Source: Kiritimatiellia bacterium
Lineage (GTDB): Bacteria > Verrucomicrobiota > Kiritimatiellia > JAAZAB01
Assembly: GCA_040767085.1 (NCBI GenBank)
Contig: JAXGPF010000008.1
Coordinates: 44,590-108,589, forward strand
Length of the DNA: 64,000 bases
Direction of reading: 5' to 3'
A model generated the notes under the pieces. That model did not search any database and was not told where the DNA came from. It saw nothing but the letters and a program-made list of their open reading frames with translations. Positions 8,357 to 60,900 of the stretch are shown here, one piece after another; within the stretch, counting starts at the first letter, position 1; every line of letters begins with the position of its first letter. The position numbers and the translations under genes are program-made.

Positions 8357-9292
8357 TCAACTTATCCCGAAGTGCCGGCGCGGATTATGGACCAGCATTT
8401 GCCGGATTTGACGCCGGGTGACTCCCAGCCTCTCCAGCGCGGGCGCCATCCGGGTGAATACGCTGCGATACGTGCGCCCGGGGTTGCCTTGCACGAGCCG
8501 CAGCGCGTTCTGCGGCCGGAACCCGGCGTCAACCGACAGCGTGATTTGGTCCAGGTATCCGCGGTCAATCAGCGCTTGCACCATCGCCATGGATGCGCGC
8601 ACGCCCCGGCCGGAGTCCAGCCGGCCGCCGCCGCAGTTGAAGCTCAGGTTGGCGCCTTGATCCGCGGCCGGGAGAAGCTGGTCAATGGCGGTGATGCTTT
8701 TGCCGTCCGCATGCCCGATGGTAATCGCGCCGGGCGCCACGCCGTGTTTAGTCAGCGCCCGCAGTTGTGCTGCCGGCTGATCGCCGCCCAGGTGCGTGGT
8801 GATGGGCAGGCCCGTCGCGTGGTGGGTTCGGGCCAAGGCTTCAAACCAGCGCGCGACGATGGCGTAATGGCGCCGCCGCCGGTCGGAGAGTTCATGCAGC
8901 GAAGTCGCCTTCAATACTCCGGGCCGGATGCCGCGGCCATCCATGCCATGGCGCGCTTCCGCCGTCCAACGCCGGGCGAGTTCCTTGACGGACGCGTTCA
9001 GCATCCACCATGGTGATTTTTCCACGGTGTAAAAGCCGGTGGCAGCGATGATGTGAAACTTTGCCTGGCGCGCAATCTCCGCGTAAGTCTCCAGGTCCCG
9101 CCCTGTGGAAGCGCTGGGCGTGCATTCCACCAGGGCGTTGCATCGGTGTTTTTCGCGCAGCTCCCGCAGGCGGGGGACGATGAGGCGCAGCGCCTGCGTC
9201 CGGATGGCGATGGACGCCTCGTTGGGACCGTAAAGCGTCAGGTGTTCATGCGTCAGGCACGCCTGCATTTGCTCCGGCCGGATCGCGCCCAA
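8357..9292 (-). CDS. Phosphotriesterase-related protein (amidohydrolase superfamily)
   Basis: THEHL, IIAATGFY, GVLKA, PITTH, IGHAD and LSVDAG supply the binuclear metal ligands. Start is uncertain (see finding). Confidence 0.85.
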   Translation of the reverse strand: MGAIRPEQMQACLTHEHLTLYGPNEASIAIRTQALRLIVPRLRELREKHRCNALVECTPSASTGRDLETYAEIARQAKFHIIAATGFYTVEKSPWWMLNASVKELARRWTAEARHGMDGRGIRPGVLKATSLHELSDRRRRHYAIVARWFEALARTHHATGLPITTHLGGDQPAAQLRALTKHGVAPGAITIGHADGKSITAIDQLLPAADQGANLSFNCGGGRLDSGRGVRASMAMVQALIDRGYLDQITLSVDAGFRPQNALRLVQGNPGRTYRSVFTRMAPALERLGVTRRQIRQMLVHNPRRHFGIS

Positions 9293-9350
9293 TACTGTTT
9301 CAATCCTGGTTTACATCTTGACGGTTGTTGTGCGGCGTGCAGTCCCCATG

Positions 9351-10850
9351 TCACCGCGGGCATTCCAGCCGCGCGCCGCGCGTTTCGACCGCGCCCTTGA
9401 ATTTGCCCCCGATGCGCAGCCGGACGGAATGCACGTTCCGGGCCGGCAGGTCGAAGGTCTGCTGCGCCAGCCACCAGCCCTGGGCGCGCTTGAGGTTGGG
9501 CTCCTTGACCATGAAGTGGCGGATGGTCTCGTATTCCGGCCGGAGCGGGTCGGGATTGCCGGAGTCGATCCGCTTGGTCAGCTCCACGACCAGCGCAATC
9601 GAGCCTTTGAAATCAGGGCTCTTTTTAAACAGCGCCTGCATCATCAGTTTCGCGCCGTCTTTGACGTGAATTTCGGGCGATATCAGCCAGCATTCGGCGC
9701 GGGCATCCAGGGATTGGAAGGCAAATCCACCCTCGGATTCCGGCCGCGCGCGCCAGGCGATGGTTTGCCGGTAGCGGTTGTCCAGGTGGATGTCCCAGCC
9801 GGACAGCGGTTGATTGGGCGGGGTGGACGCGCCGGGGAATTCCAGGAAATTGCTGCCGGGCGCCATGTCGGCCCCGCGCACGACTTCCATCTTCAAGCCT
9901 GGGACAGCCAGGCGGCGCTGGTGGAAACGCCACCATTGCCAGCCCGCCACGCAGACGCCGGCGGAGATGAGCATCAACATGGCCAGGAAGAGCGTCTGCC
10001 ACCGGCGCACCCGGCGTTTCAACTGCGCCAGGTACTGCACCGGCACTGTATCGCGCATGGCGCCGGCGGGCCGGGCGGGCGGACTGAAGTTCACGCGCTC
10101 GCGCAGCGGCGGCTGGAGCGCCCGCGGGGCCGCGTTCAGGAATGGCGCCGCCTCCAGCGGCAGCCCGGCCTTTTCCATCTCGGCGCGGTGGGCGTCCAGG
10201 TCGAAGGGCACCTTGCGCCAGAATACGGAACCGGTATCCTCGTCAAATATGCAGTAGGTTGCCCGGTAATCACCGTCGCGCGGCTGGCCGACGGAGCCGA
10301 CATTGACCAGGAAGCGTTTGCCTTCCTCCAGCATGAAATCTTCCGGCGGAATCAGGCGGGGTGTCTGGCTGCGGCCGATGACGAAAATACCTGGCTGATG
10401 GGTGTGCCCGACGAACAGGAGCGGTTCCGACACTTTGCGCCAGCCGGCTACGGCATCCTGCGGCTCAAAAATATAATGGAACCCGGCCGGCTGGTCGAAA
10501 TTGGCATGGGCGCAGCGGAAATTTTCGCCGGCCAGGCAGAGCGGCAGGCGCGACAGGAATTTTTTTGCCGGCTCGCCCAGTTGTAAGGCGGACCACTGGA
10601 TGATGCCGCGGGCGGGTTCGCTGAAATATTTGGGATCGATTTTACCGCAGATGGCGGCGTCGTGGTTGCCCAACAGGAAATGATCCACGCTGGTGTAGAG
10701 CGCCTCCAGCACTTCCCGGGGGCGGGGGCCGTAGCCGACCATGTCGCCCAGGCTGATGATGCTGTCAACCCCGGCGCTCCGGATATCCAGCAGCACGGCA
10801 TTCCACGCCGCCAGGTTGGCGTGGATATCGGAAACCACGGCATACTTCAC
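9351..10850 (-). CDS. Metallophosphoesterase fused to a TM helix and a C-terminal beta-rich (carbohydrate-binding-like) domain
   Basis: SDIHAN, LGDMVGYG, LGNHD, HAN, GHTHQP and NVGSVGQPRDG, followed by the hydrophobic helix TLFLAMLMLISAGVCVAGW. Confidence 0.85.
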   Translation of the reverse strand: MKYAVVSDIHANLAAWNAVLLDIRSAGVDSIISLGDMVGYGPRPREVLEALYTSVDHFLLGNHDAAICGKIDPKYFSEPARGIIQWSALQLGEPAKKFLSRLPLCLAGENFRCAHANFDQPAGFHYIFEPQDAVAGWRKVSEPLLFVGHTHQPGIFVIGRSQTPRLIPPEDFMLEEGKRFLVNVGSVGQPRDGDYRATYCIFDEDTGSVFWRKVPFDLDAHRAEMEKAGLPLEAAPFLNAAPRALQPPLRERVNFSPPARPAGAMRDTVPVQYLAQLKRRVRRWQTLFLAMLMLISAGVCVAGWQWWRFHQRRLAVPGLKMEVVRGADMAPGSNFLEFPGASTPPNQPLSGWDIHLDNRYRQTIAWRARPESEGGFAFQSLDARAECWLISPEIHVKDGAKLMMQALFKKSPDFKGSIALVVELTKRIDSGNPDPLRPEYETIRHFMVKEPNLKRAQGWWLAQQTFDLPARNVHSVRLRIGGKFKGAVETRGARLECPR

Positions 10851-10932
10851 GGGGCACCTCCGGCAGGGTTGGCGCAGTGCAGGTCAGTTGCTGCATCTTA
10901 GCAAACCGACGGCGGAATGTAAATGTCCGCCA

Positions 10933-12012
10933 TCATGGCAGCCGGCGCAGCCGGCCGGCGTATTCCGGCGCGGGGGTGAACCGTGCGGCGAAGGCGGGCG
11001 TGGCATGGAGTTCCAGGGGCTGGCGGTCCGGCACGAACAGGGCGGCATGGCCGGGGAAGTTCGTTTGCAGAAAACCGGCGCCGTGTTCCAGCCCCATGAC
11101 AAACAACGTGGTCGAGAGGGCGTCGGCGTCCATGGCGGCGTCCGGGCCGGCGCCGATGACGGTTACGGACACCATGCCCTCCGCGGGGAGGCCGGTGCGC
11201 GGGTCGAGGATATGCGCGTAGCGCCGGCCGCCGATGATAACGAACCGTTCGTAATTACCGGAGGTGGCCGCGGCTTCGCCGTCCTGCAAGGCCAGCGTGC
11301 CCAGCACGCGCCCTGCCGCAAAAGGATTCTGGACGGCGATGCGCCAGGGGACGCCGGGCGCGGCGGCCCCCAGCGCGCGGAGATTGCCGCCCAGGTTGAG
11401 CAAGACGTTGGTGAGTCCATGTTTGACCATGATCCGGGCGACTTCATCCACGGCAAAACCCTTGGCAATGCCGCCGAGGTCCACCTGCATGCCCGGCCGC
11501 GCCAGCCGCGCCGTCTGGTTGCTGATTTCCAGGCGTCTGTAATCCACGCATCGCCGCGCCTCCTCCAAGGCGGCCGACGCCGGCGGCTGCCCCGGCGCCG
11601 TTCCGCCGCGCAGTCCCCAAATCCGCAGCAAGGGCGGCACGGTGACATCGAAGGCGCCGGCGCTTAATTCGCCGTAGCGGCGGGCGGCCTGCAGAATGAC
11701 GATGGTTTCCCGCGCCAGGGGCGCCGGCGCGGCGCCGGCGGCCTGGTTGAGCCGCCCGATATCGCTATCGGGGTTGAAGAAACTCAAGCGGTTTTCCAGC
11801 CCGTACAACGCATTGGCGCTGAGCACGCCGGCCGGCTCCAGGTAGTCGGCGCGGTCGGCCGGGAGCGTGACGGTAAAAACCGTGCCCATCGCCAGGAACA
11901 TTTTGCGGGGCAGCGCCGCCGGCCGGCAGGCCGTCAATGCCAGCAGCAGGCCGCCCAGCAAGACGGCGGCGCCGACGGCTTTGATAGCTGGGGAAGAGGT
12001 GTGAAAATTCAT
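10933..12012 (-). CDS. apbE: FAD:protein FMN transferase (lipoprotein)
   Basis: AMGT, GAFDVTV, DLGGIAKGFAVD, LNLGGN, ATSGNYER, HILDPRTG, ADALSTTLFVMG; lipobox LTAC. Confidence 0.95.
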   Translation of the reverse strand: MNFHTSSPAIKAVGAAVLLGGLLLALTACRPAALPRKMFLAMGTVFTVTLPADRADYLEPAGVLSANALYGLENRLSFFNPDSDIGRLNQAAGAAPAPLARETIVILQAARRYGELSAGAFDVTVPPLLRIWGLRGGTAPGQPPASAALEEARRCVDYRRLEISNQTARLARPGMQVDLGGIAKGFAVDEVARIMVKHGLTNVLLNLGGNLRALGAAAPGVPWRIAVQNPFAAGRVLGTLALQDGEAAATSGNYERFVIIGGRRYAHILDPRTGLPAEGMVSVTVIGAGPDAAMDADALSTTLFVMGLEHGAGFLQTNFPGHAALFVPDRQPLELHATPAFAARFTPAPEYAGRLRRLP

Positions 12013-50992: not shown

Positions 50993-51260
50993 GCAGTCAG
51001 CTTGACTGTTGGTTTTGGTTCAGTAGCATCCCATAGCAAACCGCTTGATTCTCTCACAAAGCCGCAAAGCCACAAAGAAGACGCGGATAATTTACCACTG
51101 AACCGGAAGGATTGGCCACCCAAAGTTGACTAGATTGACGCATATAGCGGGCATCTTTCCCTTTCCTGTACGTCAATCTGTATTCACAACCCGTTAAATA
51201 TCAACGAAAGAGTTGATGGATTTAACGAAAACGGTGGAAATGTGTCGTGCTATGCATGAC

Positions 51261-51279
51261 GCATAATATTATGTTGGCC
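51261..51279 (+). other. attI-like integron recombination site
   Basis: GCATAAT-N5-GTTGGCC (L box, 5 bp, R box). GTTGGCC is the exact complement of the GGCCAAC that ends the first cassette. Confidence 0.55.
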
Positions 51280-51291
51280 CAGATCGAGGAC

Positions 51292-52164
51292 ATGACAAAA
51301 CGAAAACAGATCACCAAGACCGTCCGATTTGAGGTCTTCAAGCGCGACTCATTTGCCTGTCAGTATTGTGGACGGAAGGCTCCTGAAGTCCTGCTTGTGA
51401 TTGACCACATCGAGCCAGTGGCAAAGGGTGGTACGAACGACATACTGAACCTCATCACCGCCTGCAAAGACTGCAATGCGGGCAAGTCCGATCGCCAGTT
51501 GTCAGACTCCTCGATTCTCGACAAGCAGCGGCAGCAATTGGAGGACTTGCAGGAGCGGAAAGAGCAGATCGAAATGATGTTCCAGTGGCAGAAGGGCCTA
51601 CTTGACCTCGACGACCAGGTCGTTCAGCAGTTGACGGCGTTCTGGTCAGAGCAGGTTCCCGGATATAGCCTGAACGAGACCGGCATCAAGGGTCTCAAAC
51701 GGCTTAAGCGGAAGTTTGAACTTGATGAGATCCTGGCCGCCATGAAGATCGCCGCAGAACAGTACATCGAGTTCAAAGACGGGCAACCGACAAAGGAATC
51801 CGTTGAGGAGGCATGGGGGAAGGTCGGCGGCGTCTGTGCCGTCAGGCGCGAAGAGAAGAAACGTCCCCACATGCAAAAGCTTCGTTACGTGCGGGGTATC
51901 CTCCGCAACAGGCTAAGCTACCTGGACGAAGCACGCGCCCTTCAGTTGCTGGAGGAAGCCTTCGACGCAAGTGCGAGCCTTGAAAATCTGGAGAAGCACG
52001 CGAAGTCGCTACGAACTTGGACCGAATGGCGCAACGACATTGAGGCGTTTATCACCGAGCACGAAGAGAAACCGGAAGATGACGGAGAGGGCCAACAAAC
52101 GGTCCGAGGCTACTCCGAAACCCGCGCCGCAAACGGCGCGTCTTCCGGATCGCCTCAACCGTAG
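51292..52164 (+). CDS. HNH endonuclease (cassette 1)
   Basis: VRFEVFKRDSFACQYCG...IDHIEPVAKGGTND..NLITACKDCNAGKSD plus a helical C-terminal domain; GAGGA RBS before ATG 51292. Confidence 0.9.
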   Translation: MTKRKQITKTVRFEVFKRDSFACQYCGRKAPEVLLVIDHIEPVAKGGTNDILNLITACKDCNAGKSDRQLSDSSILDKQRQQLEDLQERKEQIEMMFQWQKGLLDLDDQVVQQLTAFWSEQVPGYSLNETGIKGLKRLKRKFELDEILAAMKIAAEQYIEFKDGQPTKESVEEAWGKVGGVCAVRREEKKRPHMQKLRYVRGILRNRLSYLDEARALQLLEEAFDASASLENLEKHAKSLRTWTEWRNDIEAFITEHEEKPEDDGEGQQTVRGYSETRAANGASSGSPQP

Positions 52165-52172
52165 CGTTCTGT
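52090..52172 (+). other. attC site 1 (83 bp)
   Basis: R'' GGCCAAC; L''/L' ACGGTCCGAGG / CCTCAACCGT with an extrahelical base; central hairpin CGCGCCG/CGGCGCG; R' GTTCTGT. Confidence 0.75.
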
Positions 52173-52199
52173 TGAAAGAAACATAGATGGGAAGCACAA

Positions 52200-53909
52200 A
52201 TGGACCGTGAACGGATCATCCGCGAACTCGCCAAGTGCCGGCTGAAACCGGATGGACACAGGCGTCAGTACACGATAGCCGGAAAGTTGGGACAGGGAGG
52301 GAATGGCGTCACGTTCGTCGTTCATGTTGGCCGGCGGGAGCTTGTGGCAAAGATATATGTCCCTCCGGACAGCCGGGATCTCGACAATGCCGCCTTCAAG
52401 CGATTCACCCGCGAGATTGAACTCTCCAGTCGGACTCACCATCCCTTTGTCGTCCCGGTTGCGGGAACTGGCAACATCGCGGTGGGCGCTTATACGTTCC
52501 CTTTTTATCTGATGCCCAAAGCGAAGGGCACACTTCGCAGTCTCATCCCCTCAGCGTTCACGCTTGACGGTCTCGGCTTCAGGCTCCGTACCTTTACGCA
52601 AGTCGTAAGCGGAGTCTCCTATCTGCACCACATCGGCATCTTTCACCGGGACTTGAAACCAGAGAATATTCTCCTGTCCGATAACGGCCTTCCGATGGTG
52701 GCCGACCTCGGCATTGCCCACGTTGCGCCCTCTTTCGTCGAATGGAGCAAGCTTACCCTCCCAAAAGACCATTTGATGAACTGGGATTACTACGCACCCG
52801 AACAGAGAGATGGTGACGCTACCAAGGTCGATCATCGCGCCGATATCTATGCCTTGGGCCTAATCATGTATGAACTTATGACTGGCGTTTCCCCGTCACG
52901 CCCAAACCTCCCGGAATTGTACAGCTTTGACGTTCGACTCGCGCGGTTGGATAGCATCTTTGGAAAGATGACGGCCCATTATCCTGAGAAACGCTATCAG
53001 ACTCTTGATGTACTCCAGGACGAGTTGACATGGACACTGATTGCCTTGGGAATTCCAACGGAGGCGCCTTCTTCTGATGAGGCAGACAAACGGAGCCTGG
53101 TCAGGCTACTGCGCAGCACCAATGCCGCTAATCGTGCCCGCGCACAGGAGATTGTTCGGCGCCTAGCAGACAAGGCATTGCCCGAGCTTCACGAGATGAC
53201 CGGCGACACGCGCGTGGACGTTGCCCTATCCGCGTACAAACTTCTTGGAAATCTTGTCCACAAGGAATCATTGCCGTATTTGTTGGCAGGATTGTACCCG
53301 CGACGCTCGGCGCAGAAGCCCAGATTTGTTACTGGCGAGGCAGCTGCAGAGGCCCTGCGCAACTACCCCGTTGAGGACAGACTGGCGACACTTAGGGCGA
53401 TTAAGGACTTGGTTCTCGCCAGACACATCGGCCTCATCATAGAAGGTATTCCGGCACAAGATTCCTACCCACTCGCATCCCGACTGTACGAGTCTAAGCT
53501 GTTCTACGACGACTGGAGTGAGGAATCAGGCCTCGCCTTCTTACTCCGTCTTGACCAGAATGAGGCTTGGCCGCTTGTCGAGCGCAAACTGGCAAGCGGC
53601 TCAACCGTTTACTCCTTTACCGTCTTTCGAGACTTCTTCCCCAATGTGAATTCCGACCGACAGAAGCTCCTTATTGACTACATGCTCAATCGCGATAGCG
53701 ATCTCAGCTCATGGGAGCTTCCCAGGCTTCTGGATGCCATTGCGGCATCTTTCGTCCCCTCGCAATTTGCCTCGGAAGCACTATCACGACTCAAAGATGT
53801 TGCACAGCGGCGAATCCGAAAGTGGGATGAGCGGGAAGCATTTGTTCGCAAAGTGGAGGAGCTAGAGGTGAAAACGATCGCTCCTGCAAAGAGCCCAAAG
53901 AAATCATGA
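52200..53909 (+). CDS. Hanks-type Ser/Thr protein kinase with helical (HEAT-like) C-terminus (cassette 2)
   Basis: LGQGGNG, VAK, HRDLKPENIL, DLG, YYAPEQ, DIYALG. Confidence 0.9.
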   Translation: MDRERIIRELAKCRLKPDGHRRQYTIAGKLGQGGNGVTFVVHVGRRELVAKIYVPPDSRDLDNAAFKRFTREIELSSRTHHPFVVPVAGTGNIAVGAYTFPFYLMPKAKGTLRSLIPSAFTLDGLGFRLRTFTQVVSGVSYLHHIGIFHRDLKPENILLSDNGLPMVADLGIAHVAPSFVEWSKLTLPKDHLMNWDYYAPEQRDGDATKVDHRADIYALGLIMYELMTGVSPSRPNLPELYSFDVRLARLDSIFGKMTAHYPEKRYQTLDVLQDELTWTLIALGIPTEAPSSDEADKRSLVRLLRSTNAANRARAQEIVRRLADKALPELHEMTGDTRVDVALSAYKLLGNLVHKESLPYLLAGLYPRRSAQKPRFVTGEAAAEALRNYPVEDRLATLRAIKDLVLARHIGLIIEGIPAQDSYPLASRLYESKLFYDDWSEESGLAFLLRLDQNEAWPLVERKLASGSTVYSFTVFRDFFPNVNSDRQKLLIDYMLNRDSDLSSWELPRLLDAIAASFVPSQFASEALSRLKDVAQRRIRKWDEREAFVRKVEELEVKTIAPAKSPKKS

Positions 53910-53980
53910 GCAGAACAATCGGCTTCACTCTTACGGTTGCCCCGGGGCGGATCAACCGAAGGTGAGCCGTAACGTTCGGC
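53910..53980 (+). other. attC site 2 (71 bp)
   Basis: R'' GCAGAAC (complements the cassette start GTTCTG); GCTTCAC / GTGAGC with extrahelical T; CTTACGGTTG / CAACCGAAG; R' GTTCGGC. Confidence 0.9.
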
Positions 53981-53989
53981 AGTAGAGAG

Positions 53990-54637
53990 ATGAAGGCAAT
54001 AATCCATAGGGAACTATTGCTCCGTCCGCGTACTGGATACGCAATGGATGCCGTCCAAGCCATTGCCGACTTTTGTGCGCAGTCAGAAGACTACACCTAT
54101 CTGCGAAAAGAAACGGACGAGTACTGCAGGCACATCAATGCAGATGCCTGCATGATTGCGGATCGATCCTCCAAAGTCTTCCCCGCGCTAGCCTTTGCGT
54201 CGTCTGACGGTGCTGTGCTCCAGGTTGTGAACATTGTTCCCGGCAGCGTTTCCGAAATCGGAATAGCGGACTACAACATGATACTTGACCGCTTCACCAA
54301 GGCATTCGCAATATTTTGCGGGGCAAAACGGGTTAAGATGACTATAACACAGACATCGGACTCACTGACCCTCGAGTCGGCTATTCCGGGGAGAAAGACC
54401 CGCGACTTCTTCCAGCGTTTCCTCAATCTGCATCCGACGAGTTACCACCCATCTGACATCGAGCGGCTTGATGTCTTCATCTGCGCTGCTTCAAGATACC
54501 ACTCTGGCGGCTTCAACACACATCGGCTCCGCAGGTATTTGATGGAGGTTTTGGAATGGAAAGAAAAGGACGCATCCTGGTGTTGTGACCGAATTGATGC
54601 CGGACTGGACATTCTGAAAGTAAACAGGAAATTCTAG
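53990..54637 (+). CDS. Hypothetical protein (cassette 3)
   Basis: 215-aa ORF exactly filling the space between GTTCGGC (53974) and GCCGAAC (54637); HPSDIERL motif. Confidence 0.8.
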   Translation: MKAIIHRELLLRPRTGYAMDAVQAIADFCAQSEDYTYLRKETDEYCRHINADACMIADRSSKVFPALAFASSDGAVLQVVNIVPGSVSEIGIADYNMILDRFTKAFAIFCGAKRVKMTITQTSDSLTLESAIPGRKTRDFFQRFLNLHPTSYHPSDIERLDVFICAASRYHSGGFNTHRLRRYLMEVLEWKEKDASWCCDRIDAGLDILKVNRKF

Positions 54638-54713
54638 CCGAACAAACGTAAGCGTCCGGTGGAGCGCCCCCTATGCAAACACTCCGGACGTGGCAAACTG
54701 CTTTGGGTTAAAT
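54637..54713 (+). other. attC site 3 (77 bp, imperfect)
   Basis: R'' GCCGAAC is the exact complement of the cassette start GTTCGGC; central CGTCCGG / CCGGACG; AAGC / GCTT; R' GTTAAAT. The right arm has extra bases. Confidence 0.6.
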
Positions 54714-54719
54714 TATGTA

Positions 54720-55103
54720 GGCGTGGGGTCGGACCGCGGCAAGTTGTGGGGGCGTGGGGGTCGGACCGCGGCAAGTTGTTGTTTGATAGGTGGATAGCCC
54801 GATATTATGGTGAAAAAACGCCTTAAAGGTGTTTTTTGGCGGGCTTTTTGTGTTATAAGCACCTGTAGGCCGGGAAGGATTTGTAAATGAAATGGCCAAA
54901 ACAATTATGAACCGGAGGAAATTGGCGATAGAGCAAGAGCCGATTGCTGGTGAATCGGAAGCGTATATTCTAAGGGAGCAGCCCATTGGCTATGGTAATG
55001 CTTAATGTTTATTTTGGTAATGAAAAAACGGCGCTAAGGGCCTTTAAAGTATCTGAAATATCTTTAAAGCATTGGTTTTTAGCATATTGCCGAGGTCCGA
55101 CCC
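54720..55103 (+). mobile_element. Internally deleted (non-autonomous) copy of the Y1 element, with a duplicated left end
   Basis: GGGTCGGACCGCGGCAA at 54726 and 54758; left-end sequence to about 54862 joined to the 3' end of the transposase (GTAGGCCGGGAAGG, cf. 57028); ends in TTGCCGAGGTCCGACCC (55087-55103). Confidence 0.88.
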
Positions 55104-55149
55104 TGTGGTGCGCACGGGAACCGTGTCCAGCGAAACCAGGAGAAACGCG

Positions 55150-55449
55150 ATGAATATCGAAATCATGCGAGCTTTCTTTGGGTGGTGTACCGTCATCAAC
55201 GGTGCGTTTCTGCTTCTAGCATTCTTGTTGTGCGCGAAGGCGAGCGACTGGGTGTACAGGATGCACAGCAGGTGGTTCCCCATCAAAAGGGAGGCATTAA
55301 CATTGACGATGTATTGCTTCATCGGAGGGATGAAGATTATCTTTATTATGCTAAACCTTGTGCCATATTTGGCGCCATATTTGGCGCTTGTCATTCTGGC
55401 GGGGGCGTGGGGTCGGACCGCGGCAAGATGTTGTTTGATAGGTGGATAG
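55150..55449 (+). CDS. DUF6868-like small membrane protein (cassette); natural 3' end replaced by a Y1 left end
   Basis: MNIEIMRAFFGWCTVINGAFLL..HSRWF..YCFIGGMKIIFIMLNLVPY; in-frame 12-bp tandem duplication GCCATATTTGGC (55362-55385). Confidence 0.7.
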   Translation: MNIEIMRAFFGWCTVINGAFLLLAFLLCAKASDWVYRMHSRWFPIKREALTLTMYCFIGGMKIIFIMLNLVPYLAPYLALVILAGAWGRTAARCCLIGG

Positions 55450-55566
55450 CCCGATATTATGGTAAAAAAACGCCCTTAAAGGTGTTTTTTGGCAGGCTTT
55501 TTGTGTTATAAGCACTTATATTCGTATCATGCCGAGAAAAAATCGCTATTTCATGTGTGGTCATTT
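55404..55566 (+). mobile_element. Orphan left end of the Y1 element plus the first 13 transposase codons
   Basis: GGCGTGGGGTCGGACCGCGGCAAG...ATGCCGAGAAAAAATCGCTATTTCATGTGTGGTCATTTA (MPRKNRYFMCGHL). Confidence 0.85.
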
Positions 55567-55624
55567 AGCTTGGGGAAACTCTTAACCAGATATTCCAGCG
55601 CATGGCCGGTCCGCGCTGCGTGCG

Positions 55625-55701
55625 GCCCAACCATGCACTGGACCGTCAATGGTCCGCACACACGCAGTGTGCGGCGGCCCGCCGCCAGCGCCCCGTTCGG
55701 C
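55625..55701 (+). other. attC site 4 (77 bp)
   Basis: R'' GCCCAAC; GCACTGG / CCAGCGC; central CCGCACAC / GTGTGCGG; R' GTTCGGC. Confidence 0.7.
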
Positions 55702-55726
55702 CAGAAGGCCAGAAGGGAGAGGGGAG

Positions 55727-56113
55727 ATGAGAAGGATAGTCGTGGCAATGCTGGTGTTTGCGGTGGGCACGATGATCGCAGTGTCACACCCCGGTGGGCT
55801 TGATGCAAACGGCGGCCACTACAACCGAAAGACGGGCGAATATCACTATCACCGACAACCTGCGGCAAACCCGCAGCCGCCTGCGCGATTAACTCCGTCT
55901 GCATCGCAGTCCGTCTCGACAAACAAGACGCAGACGATAGAGAAGTCGTTTTGGCTCAACACGTCCTCAGGCGTCAGGCACAACAAAGGATGCCGTTGGT
56001 TCGGGAAGACGCAAGGCGGTCGCTACTGCGGGCCAAATGAGGGGCGAGCGTGCGGGCAATGTGGTCGGCGTGGGGGTCGGACCGCGGCAAGTTGTTGTTT
56101 GATAGTAGGATAG
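55727..56113 (+). CDS. Secreted YHYH-domain protein with C-terminal Cys-rich (Ada-like) domain (cassette); stop codon replaced by a Y1 left end
   Basis: Signal peptide; HPGGLDANGGHYNRKTGEYHYH; WLNTSSGVRHNKGCRWF...CGPNEGRACGQCG. Confidence 0.78.
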   Translation: MRRIVVAMLVFAVGTMIAVSHPGGLDANGGHYNRKTGEYHYHRQPAANPQPPARLTPSASQSVSTNKTQTIEKSFWLNTSSGVRHNKGCRWFGKTQGGRYCGPNEGRACGQCGRRGGRTAASCCLIVG

Positions 56114-56302
56114 CCAGATATTATGGTAAAAATACGCCCTTAAAGGTGTTTTTTGGCCGGCTTTTTGTGTTATAAGCACTTATATTCGTATCATGCCAAG
56201 AAAAAACCGGTATTTCATGTGTGGTCATTTATGGCACTTGACCCATAGGTGTCACAACCGTGATTTTTTGCTGAAATTCGGTAAGGACCGTGATGCTTAC
56301 CG
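56067..56302 (+). mobile_element. Orphan left end of the Y1 element plus the first ~37 transposase codons
   Basis: Near-identical to the start of the full copy; MPRKNRYFMCGHLWHLTHRCHNRDFLLKFGKDRDAYR, then abuts the next left end. Confidence 0.88.
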
Positions 56303-57266
56303 GGCGTGGGGCCGGACCGCGGCAAGATGTTATATGACAGGTAGATAGCCCGATATTATAATTAAAAAACACTCTTAAAGATGTTTTTTGGCGGGTTTTT
56401 TGTGTTATAAATACTTATATTCGTATCATGCCAAGAAAAAACCGATATTTCGTGTGTGGTCATTTATGGCACTTGACCCATAGGTGTCACAACCGTGATT
56501 TTTTGCTGAAATTCGGTAAGGACCGTGATGCTTACCGCAACTTGCTCCGAGCGCGGCTACAAGGTTCTGGGGTTGATTTATACGGTTATTGCCTTACTGG
56601 CAACCATGTTCATCTCTTGGTGCATAGCGATGCCGGCCTGGATATACCTGCTCTAATAAAGTCAGTGGCCGGTGAATTTGCCCAAGCGTATAATCGGCGC
56701 AAAAGGCGCACGGGCGCTTTTTGGGGAGACCGGTACCATGCTACGCTGGTTGATAGCGGAAAATATTTGTGGCGTTGTCTGCAATATATTGATCTGAACA
56801 TGGTGCGTGCCGGGCGTGTGACGCATCCTGCGGATTGGCCATGGTGCGGATATCATGAATTGGTGGGGGAACGCAAGCGTTACTGTTTAATAAACAGGGA
56901 TGGATTACGAGCGGCGTTAAATTTTTCTTCAATTGAGAGTTTTAGCGATGAATATCGGGCAGGCATTGTTGCGCGGTTGGCGGAGCAAAACCTGCTGCGG
57001 GAGCCCTGTTGGACAGAGGTCTTGGCCGTAGGCCGGGAAGGATTTGTAAATGAAATGGCCAAAACAATTATGAACCGGCGGAAATTGGCGATAGAGCAAG
57101 AGCCGATTGCTGGCGAATCGGAAGCGTATATTCTAAGGGAGCAGTCCATTGGCTATGGGAATGCTTAATGCTTGTTTTGGTAATGAAAAAACGGCGCTAA
57201 GGGCCTTTAAAGCATCTGAAATATCTTTAAAGCATTGATTTTTAGCATATTGCCGAGGTCCGACCC
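56303..57266 (+). mobile_element. Full-length Y1 (HUH) transposase element with 17-bp inverted ends
   Basis: Left end GGGCCGGACCGCGGCAA (56309-25); right end TTGCCGAGGTCCGACCC (57250-66); markedly AT-rich. Confidence 0.85.
56428..57168 (+). CDS. REP-associated-type tyrosine transposase (Y1_Tnp, IS200-like HUH)
   Basis: HLTHRCHNR, YCLTGNHVHLLV (HUH), FWGDRY, YIDLNMVRAG (catalytic Tyr), DWPWCGY. Confidence 0.92.
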   Translation: MPRKNRYFVCGHLWHLTHRCHNRDFLLKFGKDRDAYRNLLRARLQGSGVDLYGYCLTGNHVHLLVHSDAGLDIPALIKSVAGEFAQAYNRRKRRTGAFWGDRYHATLVDSGKYLWRCLQYIDLNMVRAGRVTHPADWPWCGYHELVGERKRYCLINRDGLRAALNFSSIESFSDEYRAGIVARLAEQNLLREPCWTEVLAVGREGFVNEMAKTIMNRRKLAIEQEPIAGESEAYILREQSIGYGNA

Positions 57267-57366
57267 TGTGGCCGTGTCGTCCGACGGCATGACGATCCAC
57301 TGTCTCAACGGTTTGCCGTGTCGCTGTGCGAGTGGGCGGAGACACAGGCAGGAGAGAAAAACGCGA

Positions 57367-57395
57367 TTGATCCCCGTCCGTTGCTCGTGTAATCT
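57367..57395 (+). promoter_or_regulatory. Putative own promoter of the TA cassette
   Basis: TTGATC-N17-TAATCT followed by the AAGGGAG RBS. Confidence 0.45.
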
Positions 57396-57421
57396 ATGCT
57401 TAGCAAAAGGGAGATAATGTT

Positions 57422-57610
57422 ATGCCAACCGTCATGAAGAAAGAATCAGCACACAAAATCATCGACCGCATGCCTCAGCAGGCGACATGGGATGACCTTA
57501 TACACGAAATTTACGTTCACGAGGCGATCGAACGAGGGCTAGCCGATAGCAAGGCCGGAAGGACCAAAGAAGTTAAAGAAGTCCGTGCCAAATACGGCTT
57601 GCCGATATGA
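57422..57610 (+). CDS. Type II antitoxin (small, ParD-like)
   Basis: KESAHKIIDRMPQQATWDDLIHEIYVHEAIERGLADSKAGRT; ATGA overlap with the toxin. Confidence 0.85.
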   Translation: MPTVMKKESAHKIIDRMPQQATWDDLIHEIYVHEAIERGLADSKAGRTKEVKEVRAKYGLPI

Positions 57611-57949
57611 GAGTTCATTGGACAGACACGGCTCAATCCCATCGGCGCCATCCACGCATATATTGCCCAAGACTCCGCCGAGTACGCCATCTACACGATA
57701 GATCGCCTGACGCGACGCTCTCAGCAAATTGCCGACTTTCCTCTTTCGGGTCGTCGTGTGCCGGAATATGAAATGGACCAAATTCGAGAGGTAATCGAAG
57801 CTCATTACCGGATCATCTATTACATTAAATCAGACCAGATTGACGTTTTGGCTATCATTCATGAGGCAAGAAATATCCTGGCCGATTGCCAAGAAAACAA
57901 CATAGCCGAACCAGATTTTCCAGCGGATGGCGACCAGCGCCACCGCTGA
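57607..57949 (+). pseudogene. RelE/ParE family toxin, frameshifted after about codon 12
   Basis: MRVHWTDTAQSH, then a frame change to GAIHAYIAQDS...FPLSGRRVPE...IREVIEAHYRIIY...IDVLAIIH. Consistent with a 2-nt loss near 57643. Confidence 0.85.
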
Positions 57950-57963
57950 AAATTATGTTCGGC
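57905..57963 (+). other. attC site 5 (59 bp)
   Basis: GCCGAAC-CAGAT-TTTCCAGCGG-ATGGCGACCAGCGCCA-CCGCTGAAAA-TTAT-GTTCGGC; fully self-complementary apart from an extrahelical C. Confidence 0.92.
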
Positions 57964-57970
57964 GATTATT

Positions 57971-60900
57971 TTAGTCTCCAACCTTGCCCGTTCCCCGCCC
58001 ATAGATCAGGTTGTAAACCACCGGGATCACCAGCAAGGTGAAGATGGTGGAGACGAATAAGCCGAAGATGATGGACCAGGCCAGGCCGCTGAAAATCGGA
58101 TCGAGGGTGATCGGCCAGGCGCCCAGCAGCGTGGTGCCGGCGGTCAGGAAAATCGGGCGGAACCGCGTGGCGCCGGATTCCAGGATGGCCTCGCGCAACG
58201 AACGCCCCGCCGCCGTGTTGACGCGGATGAAGTCAATCAGGATGATGGCGTTGCGCTGGACGATGCCGCCCAGGGCGATCATGCCGATCATGGCGGTGGC
58301 GGTGAAAAACACGGGAGTGTCGAAACCGCCCACCGGGCGGTTCACCAGCAGGTTCAACAGCCAGAAACCCGGCATGATGCCGATCAGCGTCAGCGGGATG
58401 GACATCATGATGACCAGCGGCAGCAGGTAGGAGCTGGTTTCGTAAACCAGCAGGACGTAAATGGCCAGGAGCGCCACGGCGAAGGCGATGCCCAGGTCGC
58501 GGAAGACATCCACCGTGATCTTCCATTCCCCTTCACCGGCCCAGTCCGCCCTGAGACCCGCCGGCAGCGGATTGGCTTTCAGCCATTGCTGCATGGCCAG
58601 CACTGCCTCCGCCGGGCCGCGGCCCGCCATCTCGGCCGTGACGTACACCACCCGCTCCTGGTTTTTATGCATGATGGACTTGTCCTCCACCTGCTCCTCG
58701 AACCGGCCCAGTTCGCCCAGTTGGACAAATTGGCCCTGGCGGCCCTTGATGGGCAGGGTGGCCAGCAGGGCGGTGTCGGAACGCTTGTCGCGGGGCAGCC
58801 GCAGCACGAGCGGCAGTTCGTTCTGTTCGGACGGGGTATGAACCGTGCCGACCATCTGGCCGTCCAGCGCCAGCCGCAGCACCTGGGCGGCGTCCGCCGC
58901 GGCGATGCCGCTGCGTCCGGCGAGATCGCGGTCAACATGGAAAAACCATTTCTGCTGGTTGGTTTCGACCGAGTCGTCCACTTCGACGACTCCCGGCTCC
59001 TGTCGCAACCGCGCGGCCACCTGGCGGGCGCCGGCGATCAATTCGTCGTATTGCTGGTGCGGCTGGCCGTAGATTTCCGCCACCACGGTCGCGAGCACCG
59101 GCGGGCCGGGCGGAGCCTCCACGAGCTTGACCTGCGCGCCATGCCGTTCAGCGATGGCGGCGATGTCATTGCGGATGCGCAGGATGATATCGTGGCTGGA
59201 TTGCGCCCGGCGCTGGCGCGGCAGCAAGTTGACGCGGATATCCCCGAGGTTGGGCGCTTGGCGCAGGTAATAGTGCCGGACCAGTCCGTTGAAGTCCATC
59301 GGCGAAGGCGCGCCCAGGGTCGTGGTGAAGTCCACCACTTCCGGTACGCCGCGCAGGTAATCCTCTGCGTCGCGCGCCAGGGCGTCGGTCATTTCCAGCG
59401 GGGCGGATTCGGGCAGGTCCAGCACGAGCTGGAATTCGTTTTTATTGTCGAAGGGCAGCATTTTCAGGGGCACGCGGCCGGTGGCGGCCAGCAGCAGCGC
59501 GCCGGCGAACAGCGCGGCCATCACCGCCAGCAGCAGCCAGGCGGCCCGGCGCGAATCCACGAACGGGGCGGCCAGCCGGCTATAAACCGCGTAGGTGCGG
59601 GTGGTCCGCACATCGTAAGGCTTGGCATTGTCCGCCGGGGCGCGCAGCAGCTTGTTGGCCAGCCATGGCGCCAGGGCGAACGCCACCAGCATGGAACTGA
59701 TCATCGTCAGCGGCACGTTGAGGGCCATCGGGCGCATGTAGGGGCCCATCATGCCGCTGATGAAAAACATCGGGATGAACGAGACGATGATCGCCAGCGT
59801 GGCCAGCACGATGGGCGGCATCACTTCTTCCATGGCCAGTTGCACGGCCTCCTCGCGGCGGTGGCGTTTCATGGCGAAAAAGCGGTAAATGTTTTCCACG
59901 CTGACGATGGGGTTGTCCACCAGCAAGCCCAACGCCAGGATCAGCGCGAACAGCGTCACGCGGTTGATCGTGTAGCCGAACAGGAAGTTGCACAGGAGCG
60001 TCAGGGCGTAGGTGATCGGGATCGCCAGCCCGACGATCACGCCGACCCGCCAACTCATGGTCAGGGCGATCAGGGCGACGACGGTGAGCATCCCCAGGCC
60101 GAGGTTGAGCACCAGGTCGTTGACTTTTTCGTTCGCGGTGGCGCCGTAGTCCCGCGTAATGCGGACGGCGACATTGTCCGGGATGGTCCGGCCCTGCAGC
60201 GCCCGCAGGGCGCGTTCCAGTTCCCGCGCCACTTGCACGGCATTGCTGCCCTTCTTCTTGGCCACGGCGATGCTCACCGCGGCCCGGGGCGCGGCGCCGT
60301 CCGGCGCCGCGAACGCCGGGTCGGCCGGCCCATGGTGGAAGCGGGTCAGGGTGCGCGGTTCCGCCGGGCCGTCGGCGATCCGCGCGACGTCCCGCAGGTA
60401 AACCGGGCGGCCGGCATGCAGCCCCACCATCAGGTTGGCGACTTCGCCGGCATCCCGCAGAAACGGCCCGGCCGCGACCGTCGCCACGGCGTTGCCCTGC
60501 TCGAACGAGCCGGCCTGGAGCTGCAGGTTGCCCGCCTGCAGCGCGCCGGCGATTTCGCGGGGGCAGAGGCCGTGCGCCGCGAGTTGTTCCGGATCGAGGT
60601 AGACGGTCAACTGGCGTTTTTCGCCGCCGTGAATGGTGATGGCGGCGCTGTCGGGCACGTGCTGGAGTTTGCCGACGACTTCCTCGGCGATTCGGTAGAG
60701 CGCGTGGGTGTCGCAACTCCGGCTGTGCAGGGTGGCGGTCAGAATCGGCACGTCGTCAACTTCCACCGGCTTGACCACCCAGCCGGCGATGCCGGGGGTG
60801 GCTTTATCCACATTCTGGAAAATCTTGTTGTACAGCTTGATCAGGCTGGCTTCGCGGTCCTCGCCCACGTAAAACCGCACGGTCACCACCGCCATTCCCG

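Follow-up and report, generated by a model that had tools for sequence, protein, structure and literature searches.

Probable copies of a TIRYT-type transposable element in an integron cassette array of a Kiritimatiellia bacterium

What kind of element surrounds the single-tyrosine (Y1) HUH transposase gene that lies among the gene cassettes of a Kiritimatiellia genome, how did its repeated ends come to be there, and does it act on the attC sites of the array? These questions are raised by positions 54,720 to 57,266 of a 64,000-nucleotide stretch of DNA (assembly GCA_040767085.1, contig JAXGPF010000008.1, positions 44,590 to 108,589 of the forward strand), referred to below as the window. The original prediction saw here an undescribed system, namely an element resembling REP-associated tyrosine transposases (RAYTs; REP, repetitive extragenic palindrome) that mobilises itself and its ends and targets or deletes attC hairpins. 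In our analysis, the stretch most probably holds one active-looking and four decayed copies of an insertion sequence (IS) of about 970 bp belonging to the TIRYT/TIRtron type, which has hit three sites of the array. We put the probability of this reading at about 0.72.

The element, its copies and its relatives

The full-length copy spans positions 56303..57271 with its trailing TGTGG (964 bp to 57266) and, like all copies and attC sites of the window described below, lies on the + strand. It begins with the left end GGGCGTGGGGCCGGACCGCGGCAAG and finishes with the right end TTGCCGAGGTCCGACCC. These terminal inverted repeats (TIRs) are imperfect, 17-24 bp long and 90-94% complementary, share the core GGGTCGGACC, and are placed 125 bp ahead of the ATG and 98 bp past the stop codon of the transposase gene. 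Repeat finding confirmed that the right ends are inverse copies of the left ends, complementary to them at 16 of 17 positions. The 17-mer GGTCGGACCGCGGCAAG, with up to 3 mismatches allowed, was found 7 times in the window against 0.57 expected, and 0 of 100 shuffled sequences gave 7.

The predicted inventory of one full copy, one internal-deletion derivative and three co-oriented left ends was reproduced by repeat finding and BLAST. The derivative, which resembles a MITE (a miniature transposable element with inverted repeats), occupies positions 54752..55108 including its terminal TGTGG (54752-55103 without it) in the 5' leader of the DUF6868 cassette, and joins the left ~110 nt of the element (87% identical to the full copy) to its right 244 nt (97%). 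Its left end is abutted by the shortest fragment, a left end of 28-30 nt at 54720..54749 with TGTGG at its end, which starts, as predicted, 6 bp after the GTTAAAT of an attC site (attC B below; attC3 of the original prediction). The two longer fragments are also left ends only. One, of 163 nt (55404..55566; 88% identical to the full copy), follows the single TCTGG of the DUF6868 open reading frame (ORF). The other, of 236 nt (56067..56302; 90%), follows the single TGTGG of the YHYH ORF, reaches 37 codons into the transposase gene and stops where the left end of the full copy starts.

When the element was searched with BLAST against the whole draft assembly of the source genome (4.08 Mb), the full copy of the window was the only one. 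Further material comprised a second MITE-like copy of ~430 bp, located in an intergenic region between ordinary genes (C23:155655-156095), and one left end at a contig edge (C18). The genome-wide map of the end motif proposed at the outset placed the 17-mer at element copies only, but not all of these are in the array, since the C23 copy lies between ordinary genes.

Independent, diverged copies and MITE-like derivatives at no fewer than four sites of the assembly support the notion of a RAYT-like element that mobilises its ends as well as itself. Pairwise identity among the left-end copies is only 82-94%, with the left end of the full copy being the most divergent; they are separate, old insertions from more than one source and have not arisen by local duplication or through a collapse of repeats. 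If a RAYT-like gene had become domesticated and immobile and its repeats had multiplied by recombination or replication slippage, or if the stretch were an assembly artefact, this would suit the single full copy, the usual single-copy state of RAYT class 2 genes (PMC5581495), the draft status of the assembly and the position of the C18 copy at a contig end. However, derivatives and fragments sit at unrelated loci (C23 and C18) with 6-18% divergence, and identical multi-copy elements are present in Desulfosarcina alkanivorans and in a further genome (G495), so that we find this alternative barely credible. An assembly artefact in particular appears unlikely, because the left-end copies diverge and the same architecture is found in the finished D. 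alkanivorans genome.

The transposase gene (56428..57168, + strand) is intact and encodes a protein of 246 aa that matches Pfam Y1_Tnp (PF01797) with E=2e-11. The protein carries the motifs HRCH, GNHVHLL (the HUH motif, residues 58-64) and YIDLNMVRAG, which includes the catalytic Tyr. In an alignment of 27 members (the window protein and 26 homologues), H60, H62 and Y120 are invariant, as are L123, N124 and M125 of the Tyr motif YIDLNM. Among solved structures, those of E. coli TnpA_REP (4ER8) and ISDra2 TnpA come closest, each with E of about 1e-4, and the NCBIfam model REP_Tyr_transpos (NF047646) is matched at 69 bits, under its 80-bit cut-off. The C-terminal half, which is uncharacterised, is conserved and contains an RExxWTESxAVGSxxF block; none of the 27 members matched Bac_DnaA_C, HTH_23 or HTH_28 (Pfam, E<=1).

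A word-limited protein search yielded at least 2279 homologues with E <= 0.001 among the 3000 candidates scored, and at least 585 relatives were confirmed among 599 pattern matches scanned in species-representative genomes. Their hosts include Verrucomicrobiota, Planctomycetota, Lentisphaerota, Acidobacteriota, Desulfobacterota and Gammaproteobacteria. The core (G)GGGTCGGACC was present at both ends in ~45 of the 75 loci examined, and relatives with 85% and 62% identity carry the same ends. Furthermore, the spacing of the ends is constant across phyla: the left end precedes the ATG by about 110-160 bp, and the right end follows the stop codon at a distance of 95-105 bp. By eye only, a recurrent CTTAAG-like motif was noticed beside T/A runs at the element ends.

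RAYT-like genes with terminal inverted repeats have been named TIRYTs/TIRtrons, many of them with a GGGGWSAS motif (Di Nocera, De Gregorio & Rocco 2013, PMC3733652), and most TIRYTs were subsequently placed in TnpA_Y1 subclass 2.1, with a median length of 238 aa, an NHVH motif and no REPs (Quentin et al. 2018, PMC6006769). Judged by its sequence features, the element is a TIRYT/TIRtron nearest to this subclass, that is, a described but unstudied kind and not the undescribed system that had been proposed. It shares with TIRYTs a RAYT-like Y1 transposase of ~240 aa, the NHVH form of the HUH motif, TIRs in place of REP hairpins, and a small number of copies, in some cases with a minor family of solo TIRs; its TIR core GGGGTCGG, compared with the published consensus, fits GGGGWSAS at 7 of 8 positions (G for A). 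The agreement with subclass 2.1 extends to the NHVH/NH[YF]H motif and to length (~238 aa there, 246 aa here), but the Tyr motif of the subclass is YIELNP or Y[IV]HLNP (class 2 signature Y---NP) rather than YIDLNM, and its C-terminal extension is helix-turn-helix-like (Bac_DnaA_C, HTH_23, HTH_28), a signal that was not detected here.

Two better-known groups are also similar in part. Like IS200/IS605 elements (IS608, ISDra2), the element has the Y1 HUH core (PF01797) and strictly co-oriented copies. Those elements insert 3' of a specific tetra- or pentanucleotide and do not duplicate the target; the element may do likewise at a short sequence resembling its right terminus. However, IS200/IS605 elements have subterminal imperfect hairpins and no TIRs, whereas the element has TIRs and no hairpin supported by covariation; its protein is longer, with an extra C-terminal domain, is not accompanied by tnpB and reaches a profile E of only 1e-4 to ISDra2 TnpA. 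With the REPtrons of the REP/RAYT systems it shares the closest structure (TnpA_REP, 4ER8) and a gene flanked by inverted copies of a cognate repeat; here, by contrast, the repeat is not a REP hairpin and does not exist in hundreds of dispersed copies, and the protein stays under the NF047646 cut-off. TIRYT-type Y1 transposases are widespread. Catalogues list them only as unusual relatives of RAYTs "not associated with IS features". The locus and its relatives offer testable handles on them, namely defined ends, a natural MITE substrate and a candidate pentanucleotide target.

The genome also encodes six Y1 paralogues that are less closely related (27-32% identity). Ends that belong to other subfamilies (GGTCGGACCnnnGCAAC...) and stand alone were located at C5:121041-121102, C24:196024-196075, C5:117513-117650 and C24:9452-9586; in the last of these, the initial 21 codons of the transposase are retained. 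The GGTCGGACC-ended sequences at C5:117648 and C5:121058 had been considered as the two ends of one 3.4-kb element; this was ruled out, as they point apart and are solo ends of other subfamilies.

Insertion junctions and the target sequence

Comparison with intact cassettes in relatives confirmed the predicted insertion at the last codons of the DUF6868 and YHYH genes, with loss of the stop codons. The intact YHYH gene of a same-genus genome (L093) ends ...CAGTGTGG/CGGATGA (also given as ...GGGCAGTGTGG/CGGATGA; the slash marks the junction), and the intact DUF6868 genes of two relatives (L100 and L101) end ...CATTTTGG/GATGA or similar, from which it follows that both insertions replace the last 2-3 codons and the stop. 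Both gene-end junctions lie directly 3' of the pentamer T[GC]TGG, which occurs once per ORF on the coding strand and has a genome-wide frequency of ~1.6 per kb-strand. All three right ends in the genome are then followed by a pentamer of the same form (TGTGG, TGTGG and TCTGG). The position at the last codons is most simply a target-sequence effect, because the only T[GC]TGG of each ORF lies there.

The same pentamers could be read differently, as the 5-bp target duplication (TGTGG) of a non-autonomous, Tn3-like element of the DDE type with GGGG TIRs, which would be moved in trans and would carry the Y1 gene as a passenger. TGTGG indeed flanks both the MITE and the unit formed by the 236-nt fragment and the full copy, and the TIRs begin with GGGG. 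Tn3-family ends also start with GGGG. However, the C23 copy has TCTGG past its right end and no matching sequence on its left flank, which counts against a simple target duplication, and neither target-site duplications nor flanking direct repeats were found in the loci of relatives. Furthermore, the sequence past the putative duplications does not continue the native target, and the linkage and spacing of TIRs and gene are kept across phyla with no conserved DDE partner. We therefore hold a DDE-type origin to be very unlikely.

Left-end pile-ups, terminal stutters and a possible mechanism

One-ended products, which had been proposed from the window, recur across the family as left-end-only copies. 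In the finished genome of D. alkanivorans, 3'-truncated copies of 194, 358 and 535 nt lie immediately upstream of full copies and share their orientation, and the multi-copy elements are 99-100% identical. A Sedimentisphaerales genome has left ends of 110 and 55 nt ahead of a full copy, and in a further genome (G492) an 860-nt copy missing the right end only abuts a full copy. Within the +/-3 kb flanks of 41 loci, we counted 9 extra left ends and 4 extra right ends, a weak asymmetry in the direction of the pile-ups.

A second recurrent feature was found at the very boundaries of the elements, where the terminal 7-12 nt of either end are tandemly repeated just outside the element. Such stutters are present at 12 of 41 left ends and 10 of 41 right ends, compared with 0.8-0.9% of random positions (p=5e-16 and 4e-12, respectively), and their arrays reach four or five units; the C23 copy of the Kiritimatiellia genome has a stutter on both sides. 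Taken together, the sequences of the pile-ups and stutters suggest a process in which the element boundary is used repeatedly and which frequently halts short of the right end, and these reproducible by-products constrain the mechanism. Polar one-ended products, tandem or abutting insertions and multiple termini are shared with IS91/ISCR elements and Helitrons; those, however, have Y2 Rep-like enzymes and typically over-run the terminator, whereas the copies described here stop short of the right end. The TIRYT publications contain no mobility evidence, MITE-like derivatives, left-end pile-ups, stutter arrays or integron link, and in the literature searched we found no report of polar pile-ups, terminal stutter arrays or a statistical link with integrons.

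One of the genomes with multi-copy elements (G495, C3:736000-755000) contains a 19-kb region filled with copies and fragments of the element, nested or in tandem, in which core motifs number more than 20 and modules reach 1.3 kb at 99% identity. The region is far from both integron integrase (IntI) genes of that genome.

A TIRYT element of this kind might move as single-stranded DNA by Y1 chemistry, in a manner similar to the "peel and paste" transposition of IS200/IS605. It would insert 3' of a short target resembling its own right terminus, and the target would be kept at the left boundary of the resident copy, so that new copies would land at the same place. Later polar events could then strip the upstream copy of its right part, precisely as far as the next left end. 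Such events might consist in aberrant cleavage, in which the right end is paired with a pseudo-site inside the element, or in an abortive transfer initiated at the left end; polar events of either sort would leave left-end-only fragments and short terminal stutters throughout the family.

Several points weigh against the interpretation of the stretch as a mobile TIRYT element and its decayed copies. Neither a transposition intermediate nor an excised site was observed, and mobility is deduced from the distribution of copies. The T[GC]TGG target is based on two empty-site comparisons and three right ends, all from one genome; two left junctions in that genome (54720 and C23) have no clean T[GC]TGG, and no equivalent left-flank rule was found in other lineages. 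In 31 left and 31 right ends analyzed with RNAalifold, there was no conserved subterminal hairpin beyond the palindromic core and none supported by covariation, and hence the recognition logic of IS200/IS605 may not apply. Extra left ends outnumber extra right ends by only 9 to 4 among the 41 loci, and the process suggested for the left-end-only fragments and stutters is a proposal.

Association with integron cassette arrays

The array that carries the element consists of co-oriented cassettes for an HNH protein, a Ser/Thr kinase, an orphan ORF, DUF6868, a YHYH-domain protein and a ParD/ParE-like pair, parted by attC-type imperfect palindromes with the borders GCCGAAC...GTTCGGC. No integron integrase was found at the TIGR02249 cut-off in the whole assembly, and the array is therefore integrase-less, that is, a cluster of attC sites lacking integron-integrases (CALIN). 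No further arrays with the attC types of the window were found elsewhere in the genome.

The proposed connection of the element to integrons was borne out in part, by pile-ups within arrays of three genomes and by co-occurrence with IntI, but not with the attC hairpin as the target. In the Kiritimatiellia genome, the three insertion sites fall within a 6.7-kb array that makes up 0.16% of the genome, and all in-array copies are co-oriented with the cassettes. D. alkanivorans has a genuine IntI (430 bits) at 580.8 kb, with the pile-ups located 8-21 kb downstream amid recognisable attC sites; one left end provides a cassette ORF with its stop codon and has the next attC ~40 nt away on its right side. 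A second array of this genome holds two more copies, one of which has its right end abutting position 83 of a 200-nt attC. The Sedimentisphaerales copy lies 4.8 kb downstream of IntI.

Across genomes, IntI scored above the cut-off in 32 of 50 carriers of the family. Among Verrucomicrobiota (an even sample of 201 genomes), IntI was present in 9 of 10 carriers versus 40 of 191 non-carriers (p=1.4e-5), and in 6 of 7 carriers once three pre-selected genomes were left aside (p=7e-4). The corresponding numbers among 251 genomes of Desulfobacterota were 11 of 18 carriers versus 82 of 233 non-carriers (p=0.028). This co-occurrence may stem from shared ecology or genome size.

Do the elements recognise attC sites? 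The original prediction was that they target the folded single-stranded attC or the 3' boundary of cassettes and parasitise or freeze the cassettes by deleting attCs. The clustering of three sites in the array, the D. alkanivorans pile-ups in a true integron array, the right end that abuts an attC position in the second array of that genome, the Sedimentisphaerales copy close to IntI, the co-occurrence in two phyla, the common orientation and the loss of the YHYH attC would all fit. However, the junctions lie outside attC sites, with the YHYH insertion point being 56 nt upstream of the attC in the intact cassette and that of the shortest fragment 6 bp past attC B, and the gene-end position is explained by the location of the sole T[GC]TGG. 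The two hit cassettes had both been thought to lack their attC; this holds for the YHYH cassette, whereas the DUF6868 cassette has retained an attC-type repeat at ~55583-55705. In 41 relatives, the 130 nt next to either end were likewise no richer in hairpins than control positions (median z -0.2 versus -0.18; p=0.39 and 0.66).

The wider distribution of the family argues in the same direction. No integron integrase gene was found in the metagenome neighbourhoods of seven relatives, and four long metagenome contigs represent plain housekeeping contexts (e.g., dnaX/recR, sufBD, ribosomal proteins). Copies in four genomes (G114, G043, G455 and G495) are 0.1-2 Mb from IntI, the C23 copy lies between ordinary genes, and among 73 copies in 50 metagenome-assembled genomes just one has an IntI at 25 kb or less, a count that does not cover integrase-less arrays. 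Targeting of attC or of the cassette boundary thus appears improbable.

A weaker form of the connection can be entertained, although it, too, is more doubtful than probable. The clade could be a third kind of integron-associated mobile element, after the IS1111-attC group and the group IIC-attC introns, which prefers cassette arrays through a single-stranded phase or cassette traffic and whose polar, left-end-initiated movement leaves left-end-only copies and stutters. All three kinds occur in cassette arrays and keep a constant orientation to the cassettes there; unlike the element studied here, which sits outside attC, the two established kinds insert at a defined position in attC, and most members of the family of the window element are outside arrays. 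Arrays probably gather copies because insertions there are tolerated and a copy-bearing cassette could travel by integrase-mediated exchange; perhaps arrays are also rich in single-stranded DNA, and there may be a real preference for such array DNA. The nearest case in the literature searched is an anecdotal IS200/IS605 element beside a CALIN (PMC7923331). If the integron link is true, integrons would have a new participant by which cassette genes are truncated and attC sites lost and which could fix or shuffle cassettes, and two systems working on single-stranded DNA would become connected. The polar movement, if true, would be a way of transposing that has not been described for HUH enzymes with a single tyrosine.

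Two neighbourhoods of relatives deserve separate mention. An integrase-like gene beside an Omnitrophota copy (G090) was not counted, as it scored below the IntI cut-off and the TIR of that element is different. In a Verrucomicrobiota genome (G114; C1:2422000-2438000, positions 8797-11234), the right end of a family member is ~20 nt from the first repeat of a CRISPR array, with repeats of 29-32 nt, a period of 61 nt and ~40 units.

Four attC sites were delineated in the array of the window. The attC A, which follows the kinase cassette (53910..53982), forms a GCAGAAC...GTTCGGC hairpin of -33 kcal/mol, and attC B (54637..54713) forms an imperfect GCCGAAC...GTTAAAT hairpin. The attC C (55583..55705), recognised by repeat similarity 17 nt after the 163-nt fragment, is of a long type and shares 91% identity over 107 nt with an attC-type repeat of a same-genus genome (G002). 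Its 5' arm (TTAACCAGATATTCCAGCG) resembles the short type of attC D and the remainder the ~130-nt long type of a same-genus genome; attC C is thus chimeric, and its outer arms therefore no longer pair. The attC D (57905..57965), the last site of the array, follows the ParD/ParE-like cassette, forms a perfect GCCGAAC...GTTCGGC hairpin of -36 kcal/mol and has homologues in three genomes (G001, G002 and G014). A possible extra attC-like hairpin, GGCCAAC...GTTGAAA, was noted at 52090-52177; it overlaps the last part of the HNH ORF and immediately precedes the kinase gene.

An Rfam scan of positions 51000-58100 gave zero family matches. Two home-made attC detectors, based on motif and stem rules and on constrained folding, were dropped: they recovered 1-2 of the 4 attCs in the window and 0 in the D. 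alkanivorans array, and matched the genome at a background rate of 0.035 per kb-strand. A MAFFT alignment of seven attCs, intended as the basis of a covariance model, was likewise dropped, as it was structurally inconsistent.

Elsewhere in the genome, a 113-aa open frame at C23:307113-307349 resembles the C-terminal quarter of the integron-integrase model (101 bits, positions 225-303) and could, from this similarity, be an intI remnant or a fragment of another tyrosine recombinase. Within the array, the 3' part of the DUF6868 gene contains a 12-bp tandem duplication (CATATTTGGCGC x2; 55364-55387) that is absent from the homologous cassettes of two relatives. In the final cassette, the ParE/RelE-like toxin (57607-57949) is distributed over two frames (57607-57771 and 57758-57949), with 4 stops in a single-frame reading, and is probably a frameshifted pseudogene; the antitoxin-like ORF beside it (57422-57610, 62 aa) is intact.

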